The position numbers were made by a program, and so were the translations under genes. From Omnitrophica WOR_2 bacterium RIFOXYA2_FULL_38_17 (GTDB lineage Bacteria > Omnitrophota > Gorgyraeia > Zapsychrales > Zapsychraceae): a stretch of DNA of 64,000 nucleotides. The stretch is taken from the NCBI GenBank assembly GCA_001805965.1, contig MHHG01000006.1, positions 3,741 through 67,740 on the forward strand, in the 5' to 3' direction. Of the stretch, positions 77 through 46,680 are shown in pieces. The notes below the pieces were generated by a model. That model was given only the letters and a program-made list of their open reading frames with translations, had not been told where the DNA came from and ran no database searches. How positions within the stretch are numbered: position 1 is the stretch's first letter; each line of letters starts with the position of its first letter.

Positions 77-955
77 ATGTTCGAAATTATTAATAAACAG
101 ATAATTGCGGAAAGCATAAAGAGAATAGATGTTTATGCTCCAGATATTGCAAGCAAGGTTTTGCCGGGACAGTTTGTAAAGATATGCCCTGAGGAAGGTG
201 ATGAAAGTATTCCTTTAACGGTTTCGGACCATGATGCGGCAAGAGGGATCATTACGCTTATTTTCCAGGAGGTTGGAAGCACAACTGGAAAATTAGGATC
301 TTTGCCAATAGGGGAAGCTGTATTTTCTATTCTTGGTCCTTTGGGTAAGGCGGTTCACATTGAAAAAGTGGGCAGGGTTATTTGTATTGCAACTGGAATA
401 GGAGCTGCTCAGATCCTTCCTATTTGTCGTGCCTTGAAAAAAGAGGGAAACAAAATTGTCGGCATAATTGGAGCTAAGACAAAATCAAAATTGATGCTTG
501 AAGCACAGATGAGAATAGCGTGTGATAAAATTCTTATTGCAACGGAAGATGGTTCTTATGTAAGGAGAGGGCTTGCTTCTGATGTTTTAAGAGAGGTCAT
601 TGGAAAAGAATCAATAGACCTTGTATATGCAATTGGTAATTTGGAAATGATGGAAACAGTTTGCTCAATTACAAAAAAAGCAAAGATCAAGACTCTAGTT
701 CAGCTAAAGCCTATCATGGTAGATTGCGTCGGAATGTGTGGGTCTTGCAGGGTAAAGGTCGGTGGCAAGATATTGATGGCGTGTACAGATGGACCGGAGT
801 TTGATGGCCATAAAGTGGATTTTAAAGATTATCAAATCAGGAAAAAATCACATGAGGAAGCAGGCAAATGCTTAAATCAAAAGTCATTACCCAATCAGCA
901 ACAAAGAGAATCGGGAATTTTAACGAAGTTTCTCTCGGGTATTCTAAAAAAATAG
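77..955 (+). CDS. NfnA/SudB/PyrK-family FAD/NAD(P)-binding ferredoxin reductase-like electron-transfer subunit
   Basis: The translation has an FAD/NAD-binding oxidoreductase fold and a C-terminal Cys cluster (CVGMCGSCRV) typical of the [2Fe-2S] PyrK/NfnA subunits. It is immediately followed by, and overlaps, a GltD/NfnB-like gene. Confidence 0.7.
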   Translation: MFEIINKQIIAESIKRIDVYAPDIASKVLPGQFVKICPEEGDESIPLTVSDHDAARGIITLIFQEVGSTTGKLGSLPIGEAVFSILGPLGKAVHIEKVGRVICIATGIGAAQILPICRALKKEGNKIVGIIGAKTKSKLMLEAQMRIACDKILIATEDGSYVRRGLASDVLREVIGKESIDLVYAIGNLEMMETVCSITKKAKIKTLVQLKPIMVDCVGMCGSCRVKVGGKILMACTDGPEFDGHKVDFKDYQIRKKSHEEAGKCLNQKSLPNQQQRESGILTKFLSGILKK

Positions 956-42385: not shown

Positions 42386-42820
42386 ATGGAATTAGATATT
42401 ATACAAATTCAAAAGATCATACCTCACAGATTTCCATTTTTGCTTATTGATAAAGTCACTGAATTAGTTCCCAATGAAAAATTGATCGCTATCAAGAACG
42501 TTACAGTTAATGAGCATCATTTTGTGGGACATTTTCCTAATGAAAAGGTCATGCCTGGAGTTTTGATAATTGAAGCAATGGCTCAGGCAGGTTGCATATA
42601 TTTTTATTATAGCAAGAATATGCAGGGTAAAGACCTTGTTTATTATCTTGCAAAAGTCACTTGTAAATTTCGTGCGCCAGTAGTGCCTGGCGATCAGTTG
42701 CGTATTGAGGTAACGACTATTAAAATGCTTCCCACTGCTGGATTTTTAAGAACCCGTGCTTATGTTAAAGATAATCTTGTAGCTGAGGCTGAGATAGGTT
42801 TCGGCATAAAGGAAGTATAA
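42386..42820 (+). CDS. fabZ: 3-hydroxyacyl-[ACP] dehydratase FabZ
   Basis: Hotdog fold with the HHFVGHFP...PGVLIIEAMAQ catalytic motif. 144 aa. Confidence 0.9.
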   Translation: MELDIIQIQKIIPHRFPFLLIDKVTELVPNEKLIAIKNVTVNEHHFVGHFPNEKVMPGVLIIEAMAQAGCIYFYYSKNMQGKDLVYYLAKVTCKFRAPVVPGDQLRIEVTTIKMLPTAGFLRTRAYVKDNLVAEAEIGFGIKEV

Positions 42821-43206
42821 TGTTCTCGAACAAAATGAATAAGAGTGATAATCATATGCATAAAGAGCGCAGGAGCATAGAAAGAGTCCAATACTATAAG
42901 CCGGTTCAGTTAAGCTTTGGTATACAGGTTTCTGTAACTGGCAAAATAAGGGATATTTCAGAGAAGAGCGCATTTATTGATATGAAGAGTTCTCTTTATG
43001 TTGAAAAAGACGATGAGTTTGATTTTAAGATATTTTTATCCAGAGATGATGCTGATTTAACAGTTGAAGGCAAGGCAAAGATATCTCGTGTAGCAACAGA
43101 GGGTATTGCGATCTATTTTACGTATTTAAGCAAGGATTCCCAGGAAAAGCTATTGGATCTTATCGATGAGCTGAGGCCAACGCAAAGAAGGCCGGATTAT
43201 TATTGA
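42820..43206 (+). CDS. PilZ-domain (c-di-GMP-binding-type) protein
   Basis: RxxxR motif (ERRSIER) and a DxSxxG-like motif (RDISEKSAF). 128 aa. Its start overlaps the fabZ stop. Confidence 0.6.
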   Translation: MFSNKMNKSDNHMHKERRSIERVQYYKPVQLSFGIQVSVTGKIRDISEKSAFIDMKSSLYVEKDDEFDFKIFLSRDDADLTVEGKAKISRVATEGIAIYFTYLSKDSQEKLLDLIDELRPTQRRPDYY

Positions 43207-43251
43207 ACTTAAATAAATAGAAATAAATAGTAAATGCAAATAAAGAATAAA

Positions 43252-43305
43252 TGGGGTCAGGCCTCGGGAATTGTAAAAGTTTCTCGGTTTCTGGCCCCAT
43301 TTTTC
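43252..43305 (+). terminator. rho-independent terminator after the PilZ gene
   Basis: Extended hairpin (tggggtcaggcctcgggaa ... ttctcggtttctggcccca, G-U wobbles only) followed by tttttc. Confidence 0.55.
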
Positions 43306-43340
43306 TATTATTTAAATCATTATAACTGAACTTAGAATCT

Positions 43341-45233
43341 ATGGAAAAATTGAATTTTCAGAAAAGTATTTATCTGACGAAAGATGCGTTCATTCTTATC
43401 TTTGCGGCTTACGCGCTGGATGTTATTTATGCGCGATTGACAACCTTTGCCTTGGGCCTGTGGCTTGCCCCTCTTTTTCTGGTTTTAAAGATCTTTCTCT
43501 TCGGAGGTATTTTTGCTACATGTATCGATATGATTTTTAAAGAGAATTACCGCATAACCCTTTTTCGGACATTGAAAAATTGCCAAAAGTATGCATGGAG
43601 CTATTTGCTATTGTTGGCTGCCATGGTCATGGTATATGTTTTTCTTACCACTTTTTTTGAGGCCTTTAACCAATTATCTTTTTTGCAGGCCAAAAATCAT
43701 TTTCAGTTTTTTGTTTATCCTTTGATAGCGTATTTGATAATTATCTCAAAATACGGAAGCACCCTCAAGAAGGGGCATTGTAAGGGGTTCTTTAGCTGTT
43801 TTGTTCTTGGGGTTTTTACAGCTGCCTATTGTCTGGATATTTTTCTTTTTTACTTTTCCGAAATTATCGATGTTGCCAATTTTGAGATCCCAAGGATCAC
43901 TCTTTTTTTGTCGAGAAGCCTGCAGACCTTTATGTTCTTCTATGTTGCTGTTTTGATCGCCGATCCTTATCTTCCAGAGGAAAAGGAGGGAAACGGAAAA
44001 GAGCTCTACTTGATAAGGCCTATCAGTAAGGGGCTTCCTGGGTATTTCAGTAGGTTTGTTGTCAGGAAATACCCTTCTTTTTTTCATGTTTTGAGGGCTT
44101 TGACACCTGCTAATTACAAAGTCAAAGAGTTTGACCAAAAAGTATTTTCAGAACGTGATTATAAGCCAGGGAAACTGGTTGCCATTACCTGTTACACCTC
44201 TAACGCTTTTCAGGCTTACCATATTGCAAGAAAATTCAAGAAAAGGGGGTCAACAGTTGTTATGGGAGGGCCTCATGTTAATTTTCTTCCCCAGGAAGCA
44301 TTGGAATATTGTGATAGCGTTGTTATCGGCGAAGCAGAAGGGGTCTGGCCAAAGCTGATAGAAGATCATGAAAAAGGAGAGCTTCAGAAGATGTATTCTG
44401 GAGAGCCTTTGGAAAACTTTTATGAGAAGACAGATGATTTTATCCTTAAAGATCTTGATAAAAATAAGGACATATTTTTGGAAGTGACAAGGGGTTGCAA
44501 ATACGGGTGCGATTTTTGTACGATTCCCAGTTTAAGTTTTGGCAGGATAAGGCGTCGCCCTATTGAAAATATTGCAAAGATGATCGAAAAGACGAAAAAA
44601 AAGAAAATGTTCTTCTATTTTCTGGATAATAATATTTTTGCCGATCCCGAATATGCTAGAGAGCTCTTTAATGAGTTGAAGCAACATAAAATAAGATGGG
44701 TGGGATCAAGCAGTCTGGATATAGCCAAGAATGATGAGGATCTGGAGCTGCTGAAACAAAGCGGTTGCGTTGAACTGCTTATTGGGTACGAGATATTCTC
44801 ATTGTCCAGTGAAAAAGAAAAGAGAGGTAAATATTCTTTGGCTGATGAATATTTGTCCCTGACGAAAAAGATCAAGAAAAAGGGCATCGCTATAAAGGCA
44901 CAGTTCATTTTGGGCTTTGAATCAGATACAATTAAAAGTTATTGGCATTTGTGGAAATTTGCATTTACGCTTCACCCAACAGAATCCGCGGTTTCTGTGC
45001 TGACCCCTTTGCCCGGATCAAAGCTGTTTCAAAAAATGACACAAGAGGACAGGATTATAAATTTAAATTGGAGCAACTATGCCCTGGACAGAGTGGTCTT
45101 TAAACATCCGTTTTTAAATGAATGGGTTTTGTCGTCCGGGTATTATGCTTATTTTCTATTCTTTCACTTAACAACATCTATTACCGGGCATTTGTTTCTT
45201 TTTATTCTGGTCGTTGCAGATTATTTGTTTTAA
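43341..45233 (+). CDS. polytopic-membrane-anchored B12-binding radical SAM enzyme (class B rSAM, probable membrane-substrate methylase or modifier)
   Basis: Residues 1-280 form about 6 TM helices. A cobalamin-binding Rossmann segment follows (VAITCYTSNAFQAYHIARKFKKRGSTVVMGGPHV). Then the CxxxCxxC radical SAM motif (GCKYGCDFC) and about 200 aa of C-terminal region. Confidence 0.7.
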   Translation: MEKLNFQKSIYLTKDAFILIFAAYALDVIYARLTTFALGLWLAPLFLVLKIFLFGGIFATCIDMIFKENYRITLFRTLKNCQKYAWSYLLLLAAMVMVYVFLTTFFEAFNQLSFLQAKNHFQFFVYPLIAYLIIISKYGSTLKKGHCKGFFSCFVLGVFTAAYCLDIFLFYFSEIIDVANFEIPRITLFLSRSLQTFMFFYVAVLIADPYLPEEKEGNGKELYLIRPISKGLPGYFSRFVVRKYPSFFHVLRALTPANYKVKEFDQKVFSERDYKPGKLVAITCYTSNAFQAYHIARKFKKRGSTVVMGGPHVNFLPQEALEYCDSVVIGEAEGVWPKLIEDHEKGELQKMYSGEPLENFYEKTDDFILKDLDKNKDIFLEVTRGCKYGCDFCTIPSLSFGRIRRRPIENIAKMIEKTKKKKMFFYFLDNNIFADPEYARELFNELKQHKIRWVGSSSLDIAKNDEDLELLKQSGCVELLIGYEIFSLSSEKEKRGKYSLADEYLSLTKKIKKKGIAIKAQFILGFESDTIKSYWHLWKFAFTLHPTESAVSVLTPLPGSKLFQKMTQEDRIINLNWSNYALDRVVFKHPFLNEWVLSSGYYAYFLFFHLTTSITGHLFLFILVVADYLF

Positions 45234-45966
45234 ACTGCAAAACCCAAATATGAATGATCGTAAAATAAATATCCAATATAAAAAGTGCTGCCGCCATGAT
45301 CAGGACTGTTGTTATAAAATTTATCGGATGAATGAATGTGGCGAAGAAAAAGGCAATGAAAAGAACTGTAGCCTGAAGAGAAAGCCTTTTGTTCAGGAAC
45401 TCAACAAGGGATATCGTTTTGTATTCTGACGCAAAAAATTCACCAATTTGATATAGGGAGAGGTTTTCAAAAGAACGCTCTTTGTAGGCGGTATCAATGA
45501 ATTCGTTCACTATTGTTAATAGGGCCACCCTGATCTGCTTTTTGAAAAAGAAATAAAGGGATAGAAGCAGGCAAAGGAATATCCATGTTCGCAGGGATTC
45601 ATGAAAAATGTATAGACGAGCGCAGGAAAACAGTGAAGGAATAGAAATTAAAAAAAGAATGTTTATGTAGGTGAAAAGTTTTTTGTATTTCCTTTTTATG
45701 CCCTGGCTGCTTTCGAGCTTTTCTCTGACCCGGTCATTTAAAATTAAAACAAGAAACCAGAAAAAAACATCGCTGTCATTTTTAATGGTTTCTTTCAATG
45801 CTTTAGGGCTTGAGAGATCAATATTTAGAAAGTTCTTGTTTATAATATTATTCATATGCATCATATTATTATAAATAGTGTTGTCAACGCAACAGTTTTG
45901 AGGCTTTTTAATAGTTACATATTTATTGATCTGGCGCACCCGGCACTTTTGTTGACTGGGGAACAA
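45202..45966 (-). CDS. hypothetical polytopic membrane protein
   Basis: 4-5 TM helices. The N-terminal about 35 aa may be an over-extension, since there is an internal Met cluster (MMHM). Converges on the rSAM gene with a 32-nt overlap. Confidence 0.4.
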   Translation of the reverse strand: MFPSQQKCRVRQINKYVTIKKPQNCCVDNTIYNNMMHMNNIINKNFLNIDLSSPKALKETIKNDSDVFFWFLVLILNDRVREKLESSQGIKRKYKKLFTYINILFLISIPSLFSCARLYIFHESLRTWIFLCLLLSLYFFFKKQIRVALLTIVNEFIDTAYKERSFENLSLYQIGEFFASEYKTISLVEFLNKRLSLQATVLFIAFFFATFIHPINFITTVLIMAAALFILDIYFTIIHIWVLQFKTNNLQRPE

Positions 45967-46084: not shown

Positions 46085-46158
46085 CGGGAAGTAGCGCAGC
46101 TGGCTAGCGCGCAACGTTCGGGACGTTGAAGTCGCGGGTTCGAATCCCGCCTTCCCGA
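46085..46158 (+). tRNA. tRNA-Pro (anticodon CGG)
   Basis: Acceptor CGGGAAG/CTTCCCG, D-arm GCGC-AGCTGGCTA-GCGC, anticodon stem CAACG/CGTTG with loop TTCGGGA (G37), T-arm GCGGG-TTCGAAT-CCCGC, discriminator A. Confidence 0.85.
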
Positions 46159-46233: not shown

Positions 46234-46680
46234 ATGAGCGAAAATAACAATGATTTCCAAGAAAAAGTAGAGAACGACCAGGATAGTGCTAAGAATCCCA
46301 AAGAGCAGGGAGGACCGAAAAAGGTTAAAATTATTTGTGATGCTAAAACAGAGCGCAATTGGGCGATGTTCTGCCATTTAAGTGCCTTGAGTTGTTTTTT
46401 AGGTGTGCCTTTTGGGAATGTCCTTGGGCCTTTGATTCTTTGGCTAGTAAAGAAAGATGAGCTTCCGGTTGTTGATGTTGAAGGAAAAGAGGCATTGAAC
46501 TTCCAGTTATCTATGACTATCTATACGATGGTCGCATTTATGTTATGTTTCTTTTTAATAGGATTTCTTTTGGTATTCCCGATAATTATAGCTAATCTTG
46601 TTCTTGTTATTGTGGCGGCGATTAAGGCAAGTAACGGAGAACATTATGAATACCCTTTTACAATTAGATTTATAAAATAG
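46234..46680 (+). CDS. DUF4870-family membrane protein with acidic N-terminal extension (paralog of 15405..15728)
   Basis: Block NWAMFCHLSALSCFLGVPFGNVLGPLILWLVKKDELPVVDVEGKEALNFQLSM, then TM helices. Confidence 0.55.
   Translation: MSENNNDFQEKVENDQDSAKNPKEQGGPKKVKIICDAKTERNWAMFCHLSALSCFLGVPFGNVLGPLILWLVKKDELPVVDVEGKEALNFQLSMTIYTMVAFMLCFFLIGFLLVFPIIIANLVLVIVAAIKASNGEHYEYPFTIRFIK

Follow-up and report, generated by a model that had tools for sequence, protein, structure and literature searches.

A gene in the window (the whole 64,000-nucleotide stretch of Omnitrophota DNA analysed here) encodes a polytopic radical SAM protein, and next to it lies the gene for a four-TM membrane protein of an unnamed family that recurs beside its homologues. 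The architecture appears to be undescribed, and the probable substrate of the enzyme is a lipid-like molecule within the membrane. Our preferred reading, held tentatively, is that the two proteins would make up a two-subunit integral-membrane radical SAM enzyme of class B type acting on a membrane-resident hydrophobic substrate. Lipid methylation, to which the preliminary description of this locus pointed through analogies without assigning a reaction, is a plausible candidate.

Architecture of the radical SAM protein

The polytopic TM region and the B12-type radical SAM enzyme that follows it belong to one gene, as the preliminary description had proposed (Table 1). The full-length protein is modelled with confidence by AF2 (pLDDT 88.9, pTM 0.84), and more than 100 homologue clusters are likewise ∼630-650 residues long with query coverages of 90-100%. 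A frameshift, or a separate gene for the TM block, is excluded by the single ORF and these full-length homologues, together with the conserved hydropathy pattern and the confident model of the membrane domain described below.

Table 1. Features of the locus, in window coordinates
Feature	Position	Strand	Remarks
fabZ	42386..42820	+	164 bits vs cut-off 113
PilZ-domain gene	42820..43206	+	Pfam PF07238, 33.4 vs cut-off 22.5 bits; adjacent, outside the conserved unit
Terminator-like hairpin and U-run	43244..43312	+	Inverted repeat between the PilZ and radical SAM genes; upstream boundary of the conserved unit
Polytopic B12-domain radical SAM gene	43341..45233	+	630 aa, stop codon included; single uninterrupted ORF
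N-terminal membrane domain	43341..43970	+	Residues 1-210; short N-terminal helix and six TM helices
Rossmann-type B12-binding-like domain	43998..44390	+	Residues ∼220-350; PF02310 match, AF2
Radical SAM core	44472..45065	+	Residues ∼378-575; PF04055
C-terminal hydrophobic helix pair	45120..45230	+	Residues 594-630; hydropathy, AF2
Partner gene, four-TM protein of an unnamed family	45202..45855	-	∼217 aa; overlaps the 3' end of the radical SAM gene by 32 nt

Both Pfam domains that the preliminary description had named for a search score above their gathering thresholds within this ORF: B12-binding (PF02310) at residues 279-336 (40.4 bits vs cut-off 32.1) and Radical_SAM (PF04055) at residues 381-537 (56.9 bits vs cut-off 29.5). 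The PF02310 match covers only the second half of the Rossmann domain, which already begins at residue 221 (221-350) and is modelled as a five-strand β/α domain (strands 221-226, 260-265, 279-283, 305-309 and 326-330). The NCBIfam alignments of TIGR04013, HpnR, QCMT and the ladderane-associated family reach into this domain, and its invariant residues (G309-G310-x-H312, E319, G330, E333 and W336) are common to all three tiers of relatives defined below. Nucleotides 44496..44519 encode the [4Fe-4S] motif of the core, C386-x3-C390-x2-C393, whose cysteines are invariant in 47 homologues. These cysteines and the Rossmann invariants are also kept in the soluble relatives, and the catalytic machinery appears to be intact. 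Membership of the radical SAM superfamily is given by the CxxxCxxC motif, the PF04055 score and a Foldseek fold corresponding to the radical SAM barrel, and the position of the PF02310 Rossmann domain N-terminal to the core is the domain arrangement of class B.

Hydropathy analysis places the hydrophobic segments within the first ∼210 residues (TM helices ∼15-210), and AF2 likewise gives six TM helices (17-35, 39-66, 74-105, 114-138, 153-175 and 183-210); modelled alone, the membrane domain reaches a pLDDT of 89.1 and a pTM of 0.85. The six-segment pattern recurs in nearly all of the 47 homologues compared (33-50% identical), with segments starting near residues 15, 45, 90, 118, 157 and 190. 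The preliminary count of about six helices is therefore upheld; the length of ∼280 residues given for them is not, as the TM block spans ∼210. Loops rich in K and R are found at the N-terminus, between TM2 and TM3, between TM4 and TM5, and after TM6. By the positive-inside rule, this suggests that the protein is oriented N-in, with its catalytic domain in the cytoplasm. Since just four residues of the TM domain are near-invariant (G56, N80, K137 and Y138), the domain may be a mere anchor rather than a substrate channel. A Foldseek search of the PDB with the TM domain alone returned no structural relative (best E 0.25, TM-score ≤0.37), no Pfam or NCBIfam family matches the N-terminal TM region, and a local search of all related loci collected found no such six-helix module outside radical SAM genes.

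A second membrane element, which the preliminary description did not mention, is the hydrophobic helix pair at the C-terminus (AF2 helices 594-612 and 614-629). Its hydrophobicity is conserved across the family, and its TTSxxG turn motif is specific to the tier 1 proteins.

The four-TM partner, gene neighborhood and relatives

The partner gene on the opposite strand is likewise absent from the preliminary description. Its ORF extends mechanically to a TTG at 45966, and alignments with homologues start at the ATG of position 45855. An exhaustive profile search recovered a small family of 240 representatives, nearly all of ∼200 residues and almost never in other architectures; Pfam and NCBIfam hold no family for it, giving just scattered single-member noise matches. 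The positive-inside rule predicts an N-in/C-in topology with the conserved motifs, I-x-x-D-x5-W-F and T-L-Y-Q-I-x-E...Y...S-L-V-D, on the cytoplasmic side. D27 is found in 97% of sequences and W33 in 99%, and some members have E, H or Y in place of Q136 in the central motif.

Genomic neighborhood analysis identifies this partner, not fabZ or the PilZ gene, as the conserved context of the radical SAM gene. Of the 38 non-redundant loci that are informative, 33 have the two genes adjacent and convergent (tail-to-tail), with gaps of -46 to +260 nt, and one more has them fused; no partner is seen in three loci whose sequence continues for 0.8-5.9 kb downstream, and a fourth has it 2.3 kb away. The fusion joins the partner in frame to the N-terminus of the radical SAM protein and is represented by two paralogues of 845 and 865 residues (32% identical), present in two independent assemblies; their reading as two independent lineages was dismissed, as they are paralogues within one lineage. 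Such a fusion is topologically possible because the catalytic domain and the partner motifs are predicted on the same cytoplasmic side. Two to three tandem radical SAM paralogues can have a single partner in common; in the NJ tree, the partner is not bound to one radical SAM orthologue group.

The only other recurrent neighbors are genes with REC domains (11 of 40 loci). A single-domain REC gene lies directly upstream on the same strand in four loci and a REC-AraC gene in one more, and a loose tie to small signalling proteins is conceivable; a REC-AraC regulator stands upstream of the 74%-identical relative. PtsP-like, CpaF-like and other neighbors occur in at most four of the 40 loci. The 40 tier 1 loci have no lipid, quinone or isoprenoid gene as a recurrent neighbor. 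The fusion lineage has MenG/UbiE-like, MenA and YegS-type lipid kinase genes as neighbors (the last two above cut-off); the MenA/UbiE context, the only one to suggest a function, is absent from all other loci searched and serves as a single-lineage hint. Within the window, neither a cobalamin riboswitch nor a B12 gene context was found, the only RNA element near the genes being a tRNA-Pro, and scans for sigma-70 promoter and terminator consensus sequences showed no enrichment over shuffles.

The relatives fall into three tiers: 6TM forms (tier 1), Omnitrophota short forms (tier 2) and soluble relatives from other phyla (tier 3). In an NJ tree of the catalytic domain, the 6TM forms make up one clade, nearly all in Omnitrophota-labelled genomes, with between one and at least four copies per genome. 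The soluble relatives form the outgroup (Nitrospirota, Thermodesulfovibrionia, Desulfomonile and Anaerolineae), followed by the short forms, which have the hydrophobic C-tail only and no 6TM domain, and then by the 6TM clade. This order suggests a stepwise commitment to the membrane. Tiers 2 and 3, the nearest tree neighbors, share the catalytic invariants and are 33-41% identical over residues ∼220-600, and neither has the 6TM domain or the partner gene; in tier 3, the C-tail is missing as well. These soluble and tail-anchored relatives, likewise uncharacterised, score below every NCBIfam cut-off. Of 19 short-form loci, 7 have a Tad-like pilus operon next to the gene. At present, the family is annotated as ‘radical SAM protein’ or, wrongly, as ‘YgiQ family’, and the partner as ‘hypothetical protein’.

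Candidate reaction and substrate

In the preferred reading, the six N-terminal TM helices and the C-terminal helix pair would hold the catalytic subunit in the inner membrane, with the Rossmann domain and the [4Fe-4S]/SAM barrel at its cytoplasmic face, and the four-TM partner would associate with it in the membrane as a dedicated second subunit. The complex would take its hydrophobic substrate laterally from the bilayer, candidates being prenylquinones, polyprenyl compounds and the acyl or isoprenoid tails of lipids. SAM cleavage by the reduced cluster would give a 5'-deoxyadenosyl radical that abstracts a hydrogen from an unactivated C-H position, and the substrate radical would most likely be quenched by methyl transfer from methylcobalamin, as in class B chemistry. 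Tandem paralogues could modify different positions or work one after another. We infer here that the two proteins form a complex, that cobalamin is used and that a hydrophobic substrate ends up methylated, and a membrane-resident substrate would be the most economical choice. The convergent orientation counts against this reading, as the partner is not co-transcribed with the radical SAM gene, and so do the loci with no adjacent partner and the lack of recurrent lipid, quinone or isoprenoid genes. More doubtful is an extended version, in which this would be the first intramembrane two-subunit B12-radical SAM holoenzyme, with a polytopic catalytic and a dedicated four-TM subunit using radical chemistry to alkylate C-H positions of a lipid, polyprenyl or quinone, or to cross-link such substrates, within the bilayer, and with paralogue sets generating a family of multiply modified, Omnitrophota-specific membrane molecules.

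The cobalamin step faces an objection of its own: the closest solved structure by both sequence profile (E 5.7e-11) and fold (E 7e-15, TM-score 0.64 on the target) is AprD4 (6fd2), whose Rossmann-like domain is cobalamin-free. The substrate could then still be a membrane lipid, modified without cobalamin-dependent methylation, either because the Rossmann domain is a relic as in AprD4 or because the outcome is a cyclisation or C-C cross-linking as for GrsA/B, or a dehydration or rearrangement. A 2026 review places AprD4 and ArsL within the B12-radical SAM similarity network although neither binds cobalamin, cobalamin biosynthesis is not universal in Omnitrophota and is absent from many of them (PMC10066038), and the window has no B12 riboswitch. 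We nevertheless regard this alternative as unlikely. The AprD4 family model (NF033070) scores 31.2 bits against a cut-off of 500 and aligns over the radical SAM core only, whereas the alignments of B12-dependent families enter the Rossmann domain and the Pfam B12-binding model passes its gathering score. Moreover, the GGxH motif, E319, G330, E333 and W336 are strictly kept across the three tiers, which argues for a ligand-binding domain rather than a relic.

It is also possible, and in our view quite unlikely, that the enzyme modifies a membrane protein instead: the partner, in one of its cytoplasmic loops, or a different small protein of the membrane, a Flp/Tad pilin for example. Protein C-methylation has precedents in this superfamily in Mmp10 and QCMT, whose target residues lie in methyl-coenzyme M reductase, and the protein methylase MgmA/QCMT is among the closest solved structures. 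The radical SAM gene is strictly accompanied by a single kind of membrane protein, whose most conserved residues (D27, W33 and TLYQIxE...SLVD) would face the cytoplasm near the catalytic domain. However, subunits are commonly fused to each other, whereas it would be unusual to find an enzyme covalently joined to a stoichiometric substrate. Two to three diverged paralogues per partner, a partner tied to no single orthologue group, its absence from the neighborhood at some loci and the replacement of Q136 all fit a substrate poorly, and the link to the Tad-like pilus operon belongs to the partner-less short forms rather than to the 6TM clade.

The fabZ and PilZ genes lie upstream on the same strand in the window, as the preliminary description stated, and it had used them to propose a link to fatty-acid synthesis with possible control by a c-di-GMP-binding PilZ protein. 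This context argument does not survive comparison: neither gene stands beside the radical SAM gene in any of 40 non-redundant related loci, the 74%-identical relative included. The start codon of the PilZ gene overlaps the fabZ stop codon (TAATG), and a hairpin followed by a U-run separates it from the radical SAM gene (-29.4 kcal/mol, z = -4.88, with 0 of 200 shuffles as stable); the PilZ gene is thus translationally coupled to fabZ and part of an upstream rib-fabZ unit. The PilZ protein has the R18-x3-R22 motif, but its second motif (D45-I-S-E-K-S50) lacks the glycine of (D/N)xSxxG. Even with the same-strand REC-domain genes upstream in five other loci, such coupling and control are very improbable. 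Finally, it is hardly credible that the six helices capture cobalamin in the manner of an ECF S-component or BtuM, a proposal prompted only by the size and helix number of the module (∼200 residues, six TM helices) on a B12-type enzyme and weakly refuted by the fold search, which has no S-component or BtuM in its top 50, while the TM domain lacks a conserved Cys or His and a Pfam or NCBIfam match, and the cytoplasmic cofactor site would make a transport step between module and enzyme unnecessary.

Relation to known radical SAM enzymes

Lipid-tailoring radical SAM enzymes are a fast-growing topic, in which the extraction of the substrate from the bilayer is an open problem. To our knowledge, those described to date (Tes, Mss, GrsA/B, Hgm and HpnP/R) are all soluble or peripheral. 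A polytopic class-B-type enzyme with a membrane subunit would, if confirmed, represent a different solution. No transmembrane B12-radical SAM enzyme was found described in the literature searched, and the word ‘transmembrane’ is never used in a 2026 review of lipid-modifying radical SAM enzymes. The radical SAM-partner pair and its natural fusion offer a concrete two-gene construct for heterologous expression. The Omnitrophota, ultra-small and possibly predatory bacteria, form a widespread uncultured phylum, and we know of no analysis of their lipids. The preferred reading would point to new membrane chemistry in this phylum, and in the extended version the modified membrane molecules could be unrecognised biomarkers of it.

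The enzyme lies outside the characterised soluble clades, an outcome that the preliminary description had left open, as no NCBIfam model comes anywhere near its cut-off: HpnJ (73.4 vs 577.6), ladderane-associated TIGR04072 (66.2 vs 360), BchE (TIGR02026, 64.6 vs 481.35), QCMT/MgmA (TIGR04014, 44 vs 360) and HpnR (43.9 vs 650). The PhpK family is likewise excluded on its curated cut-off, and no HpnP model is among the NCBIfam matches at E ≤ 0.1. BchE is the anaerobic Mg-protoporphyrin cyclase, HpnP and HpnR are the hopanoid methylases (HpnR at C-3), GrsA/GrsB the GDGT ring synthases and Hgm the H-GDGT methylase. Hopanoids, GDGTs and chlorophylls are tailored by B12-domain radical SAM enzymes. 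HpnP/HpnR, HpnJ, GrsA/GrsB, Hgm and TIGR04072 offer a functional analogy, the radical C-H functionalisation of membrane lipids. The sequence similarity of HpnJ, TIGR04072 and HpnR is weak, with scores five- to fifteen-fold under the cut-offs, and GrsA/GrsB, Hgm, Tes and Mss were considered through published descriptions.

Structurally, the catalytic part is best matched in Foldseek by AprD4, MgmA, TsrM and CysS. AprD4, a radical SAM 1,2-diol dehydratase, differs in being soluble, in its aminoglycoside substrate and in binding no cobalamin. Like QCMT/MgmA (9ccb), TsrM (6wte), CysS (9n1d) and TokK (7kdx), the Omnitrophota enzyme carries its Rossmann domain N-terminal to a partial TIM barrel with the CxxxCxxC motif. 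These class B structures align over ∼390-440 columns at 13-16% identity (E 2.5e-13 to 8.5e-11), and MgmA and TokK are also matched in profile and single-sequence searches. Unlike the Omnitrophota enzyme, however, MgmA, TsrM, CysS and TokK are soluble proteins acting on peptides, amino acids or small soluble molecules, and have neither the polytopic TM domain nor the C-terminal helix pair nor a dedicated membrane partner.

Membrane-embedded radical SAM protein

The window protein is a radical SAM (rSAM) protein that combines, as the preliminary description had read from the sequence, a B12-binding domain with a CxxxCxxC core, both detected by Pfam above cut-off (see table); the cluster motif C386-x3-C390-x2-C393 is invariant across the family. 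Strong hydrophobicity (Kyte-Doolittle) marks the first ~210 residues and residues 605-630. The six TM helices previously proposed for the N-terminal block are retained, whereas its length had been overestimated at ~280 residues, because the first half of the Rossmann domain escapes Pfam. Six N-terminal segments, starting near residues 15, 45, 90, 118, 157 and 190, recur together with the C-terminal one in 47 homologues, whose identity to the window protein is just 33-50%. The sequence of the block is weakly conserved (only G56, N80, K137 and Y138 are nearly invariant), and retention of the hydropathy pattern over such poorly conserved sequence argues for real TM helices. More than 100 homologue clusters of 620-666 residues cover 90-100% of the query, which excludes an artefact of frameshift or gene fusion. 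An AlphaFold2 model built from the homologue alignment is confident, with a pLDDT of 88.9 and a pTM of 0.84. Family-wide, K+R counts are 2.5 at the N-terminus, 2.1 in loop 2-3, 5.1 in loop 4-5 and 1.6 after TM6, against only 0.1-0.5 in the remaining loops; this distribution obeys the positive-inside rule and predicts an N-in topology with a cytoplasmic catalytic domain.

The protein falls in no characterised clade as judged by NCBIfam cut-offs, none of which is reached by it or by its shorter and soluble relatives. The JGI label 'radical SAM superfamily enzyme YgiQ (UPF0313 family)', carried by several family members, looks like a propagated misannotation, as the YgiQ model gives the window protein just 13 bits where its cut-off is 462.

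Features of the window and of related loci (L-numbers, loci in other genomes)
Feature	Location	Strand	Evidence or remark
fabZ	42386..42820		upstream of rSAM gene; NCBIfam, 164 bits, cut-off 113
PilZ-domain gene	42820..43206		upstream of rSAM gene
rSAM gene	43341..45233	+	one uninterrupted frame, 630 codons
Six N-terminal helices	residues 17-35, 39-66, 74-105, 114-138, 153-175, 183-210		AlphaFold2
Rossmann-like domain, five-stranded	residues 221-350		AlphaFold2
B12-binding domain	residues 279-336		Pfam, 40.4 bits, cut-off 32.1
Radical_SAM domain	residues 381-537		Pfam, 56.9 bits, cut-off 29.5
rSAM barrel	between Rossmann-like domain and C-terminal helices		AlphaFold2
C-terminal helices	residues 594-612, 614-629		AlphaFold2
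Partner ORF	45202..45966	-	overlaps rSAM 3' end by 32 nt
Inverted repeat, 10 nt, AT-rich	45214-45240		TTGCAGATTA / TAAACTGCAA, 7-nt spacer
Sigma-70-like promoter	45860-45887	-	TTGACA, 16 nt, TATGAT; 11/12 matches, near-consensus
tRNA-Pro (anticodon CGG)	46085..46158	+	directly beyond partner gene start
DUF4870-family membrane protein	46234-46680	+	146.5 bits; just past tRNA-Pro
REC genes upstream of rSAM	L004 5550-5924; L028 5412-5789; L029 5404-5784; L045 4888-5253	same as rSAM	single-domain, directly adjoining rSAM gene
REC-AraC regulator upstream of rSAM	L085 494-1201	same as rSAM	locus of the 74%-identical relative
Tandem paralogue arrays	L005 6030-12481; L039 1790-7727; L003, L008, L022, L028, L034, L038
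Fusion-lineage gene order	L086 2813-9790; L051 1-8854
Tier-2 loci by Tad-like operon	L054, L055, L056, L063, L065, L066, L070		members ~440-470 aa

Partner protein and its fusion to the enzyme

Homologues of the partner, encoded tail-to-tail with the rSAM gene, align from the ATG at 45855, giving a product of 217 aa. Downstream sequence of 650 nt or more was available at 38 loci; in 33 of them a ~200-aa partner homologue follows the last rSAM gene in tail-to-tail orientation, the gap ranging from -46 to +260 nt with a median of about 1. The partner is fused to the rSAM protein in one further locus and co-directional in another (L041); L033 holds a partner fragment 2.3 kb away, at the locus end, and in L007, L023 and L074 none was found within 0.8-5.9 kb. 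Neither Pfam nor NCBIfam has a model for the family. An exhaustive profile search over 1.84 billion representatives recovered 240 members (199 at E <= 1e-10), nearly all of 170-230 aa, with a median pairwise identity of 24%. D27, W33 and F34 are conserved in 97%, 99% and 91% of sequences, followed by a block comprising T/S133-L-Y-Q-I-x-E139, Y145, S149-L-V-D152, D158 and R162. Family-averaged hydropathy and K+R counts predict a protein of four TM helices whose two termini and central loop lie in the cytoplasm, which, taken with the rSAM topology, would place the conserved motifs on the same side as the catalytic domain.

The fused locus (L051) encodes an 865-aa protein that begins with the partner (residues 5-199, matching the entire profile at E 6e-29) and continues in the same reading frame into an intact six-TM B12-rSAM protein (residues 232-863). 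The exhaustive search yielded a second fused protein (P0217, 845 aa), 32% identical to the first over the whole length. Independent origin of the two fusions in separate lineages was rejected, because the first rSAM gene of L051, truncated at the locus edge, shares 99% identity with P0217. This indicates one lineage with two fused paralogues, ~3 kb apart and present in two independent assemblies. The fusion is thus real and long-maintained, and is known from one lineage only. The topology agrees, since the partner C-terminus and the rSAM N-terminus both lie inside, and we read the fusion as a Rosetta-stone indication that both proteins probably function as one membrane complex.

The fusion lineage also provides the only functional context found at any locus. 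Its gene order is a MenG/UbiE-like methyltransferase, MenA (TIGR00751, 115 bits, cut-off 102), the 845-aa fusion, a 163-aa orphan, a 586-aa protein combining a nucleotidyltransferase with a YegS-type lipid kinase (TIGR00147, 190 bits, cut-off 119), the 865-aa fusion, a TPR protein and a SIMPL protein; none of the MenG/UbiE-like, MenA or lipid kinase genes recurs at other loci. The nucleotidyltransferase-kinase fusion is an unusual architecture in its own right.

In the window, the pair is flanked by a terminator-like hairpin and a tRNA gene, amid housekeeping genes (rib operon, fabZ, ligA), and composition at 2-kb resolution is not anomalous around it. Apart from tRNA-Pro, neither a cobalamin riboswitch nor any other Rfam element was found near the genes, and the DUF4870 gene is not conserved beside related loci. 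The inverted repeat lies within the rSAM/partner 3' overlap and reaches just beyond the rSAM stop. In many related loci, too, the two genes overlap tail-to-tail by up to 46 nt, and together these features hint at a shared bidirectional terminator or at antisense interplay of both transcripts. The promoter-like sequence ends 5 nt upstream of the likely partner ATG and might yield a leaderless or very short-leader mRNA; such matches are not enriched over shuffles in this region, which makes it weak evidence.

Family tiers and phylogeny

Related loci were drawn from five homologue-bearing contigs and 79 loci of species-representative genomes, with all ORFs profile-searched. Tier 1 (630-667 aa) has six TM helices and a hydrophobic C-tail and comes almost entirely from Omnitrophota-labelled genomes, apart from a few MAGs that were automatically labelled as other groups. 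Tier 2 (430-470 aa, Omnitrophota) has the C-tail and lacks the N-terminal block, and tier 3 (440-600 aa) comprises soluble relatives from Nitrospirota, Thermodesulfovibrionia, Desulfomonile, Anaerolineae and WOR-3. In a midpoint-rooted neighbour-joining tree of the catalytic domains, computed without support values, tier 1 is a single clade, tier 2 its sister and tier 3 the outgroup; seemingly short members within the tier-1 clade are ORFs cut at contig ends. This order suggests a stepwise commitment to the membrane, in which the C-tail would have come first and the six-TM domain later. All tiers share the rSAM invariants and the Rossmann positions Y293, G303, G309-G310-x-H312, E319, G330, E333, W336, D342 and Y352, while K497 and the C-tail motif TTSxxG are specific to tier 1. 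Genomes encode one to at least four tier-1 copies, and several MAGs hold three or four on different contigs. In tandem arrays, two or three diverged paralogues precede one partner gene; in L008, both rSAM copies have a partner of their own.

Substrate, alternatives and known relatives

The architecture and the rSAM-partner partnership are well supported. Our preferred reading of their function is tentative: a two-subunit integral-membrane class-B-type rSAM enzyme that would act on a membrane-resident hydrophobic molecule, most likely methylating an unactivated carbon, with paralogues perhaps differing in target site or working in consecutive rounds. The substrate class is suggested by membrane embedding, the stepwise commitment of the clade, paralogue expansion, the single MenA/lipid-kinase context and the precedent of rSAM tailoring of hopanoids, GDGT and chlorophyll. 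Cobalamin use by the window protein is inferred from its Pfam score, Rossmann-reaching alignments to B12-dependent families and the strict conservation of the domain. That the substrate is a lipid and the chemistry non-methylating or cobalamin-free is a fairly unlikely alternative. According to a 2026 review of B12-dependent rSAM enzymes, AprD4 and ArsL have Rossmann-like domains without cobalamin; cobalamin biosynthesis is present, not universal, in Omnitrophota (PMC10066038).

A protein substrate, either the cytoplasmic motifs of the partner or a pilin, is unlikely. A Tad-like operon (SurA/PpiC-like, CpaB, CpaC secretin, ParA-CpaF ATPase) adjoins 7 of 19 tier-2 loci, where the rSAM gene is either co-directional upstream or convergent with the operon end; the adjacency may reflect either inherited synteny or a functional connection with pilus biogenesis. 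The partner was never found beside tier-2 loci.

Coupling of the enzyme to fabZ and PilZ, which the preliminary description had invoked as supporting context, is very unlikely. Both genes do lie upstream, but when all ORFs flanking 40 non-redundant tier-1 loci were clustered, no FabZ, PilZ or lipid gene recurred. The fabZ stop and PilZ ATG overlap (TAATG), and the 134-nt spacer between PilZ and the rSAM gene holds a 63-nt hairpin followed by a U-run (-29.4 kcal/mol, z = -4.9; 0 of 200 shuffles equally stable), so that PilZ reads as closing the rib-fabZ unit, from which the rSAM gene stands apart. Besides the partner, only REC-domain genes recur (11 of 40 loci, in four directly upstream on the same strand), and the PilZ gene occupies the position that they hold there; L004 and L005 additionally have a GAF-PtsP-like gene in the vicinity. 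The PilZ protein has the RxxxR motif, its second motif reading D-I-S-E-K-S. The earlier observation is confirmed and its interpretation partly supported: membrane embedding holds and a lipid substrate is plausible, while the fabZ/PilZ context fails.

Vitamin capture by the TM domain, as an ECF S-component- or BtuM-like cobalamin binder, would suit a module of ~200 aa and six helices attached to a B12 enzyme but is extremely unlikely, given that the domain modelled alone (pLDDT 89.1, pTM 0.85) found no S-component and no relative in the PDB (best E 0.25, TM-score <= 0.37, GPCRs dominating the list). As modelled, the six-helix bundle has no recognisable structural relative, and at all loci examined the module occurs only within rSAM genes.

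The word 'transmembrane' is absent from 2026 reviews on lipid-modifying rSAM and on B12-dependent rSAM enzymes, and targeted searches returned no description of a transmembrane B12-rSAM enzyme. Polytopic embedding, the C-terminal membrane hairpin and a dedicated, occasionally fused four-TM subunit are undescribed in the sources searched, and together mark a phylum-restricted clade with one to at least four copies per genome. The catalytic domains themselves belong to a known kind. Foldseek matches of the full model to the PDB are confined to the catalytic part, in accord with sequence searches: AprD4 (6fd2, E 7e-15), MgmA/QCMT (9ccb, E 2.5e-13), TsrM (6wte, E ~5e-12), CysS (9n1d, E 2e-11) and MiaB (7mjx, E ~1e-9). 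All five are soluble, whereas the window protein is polytopic.
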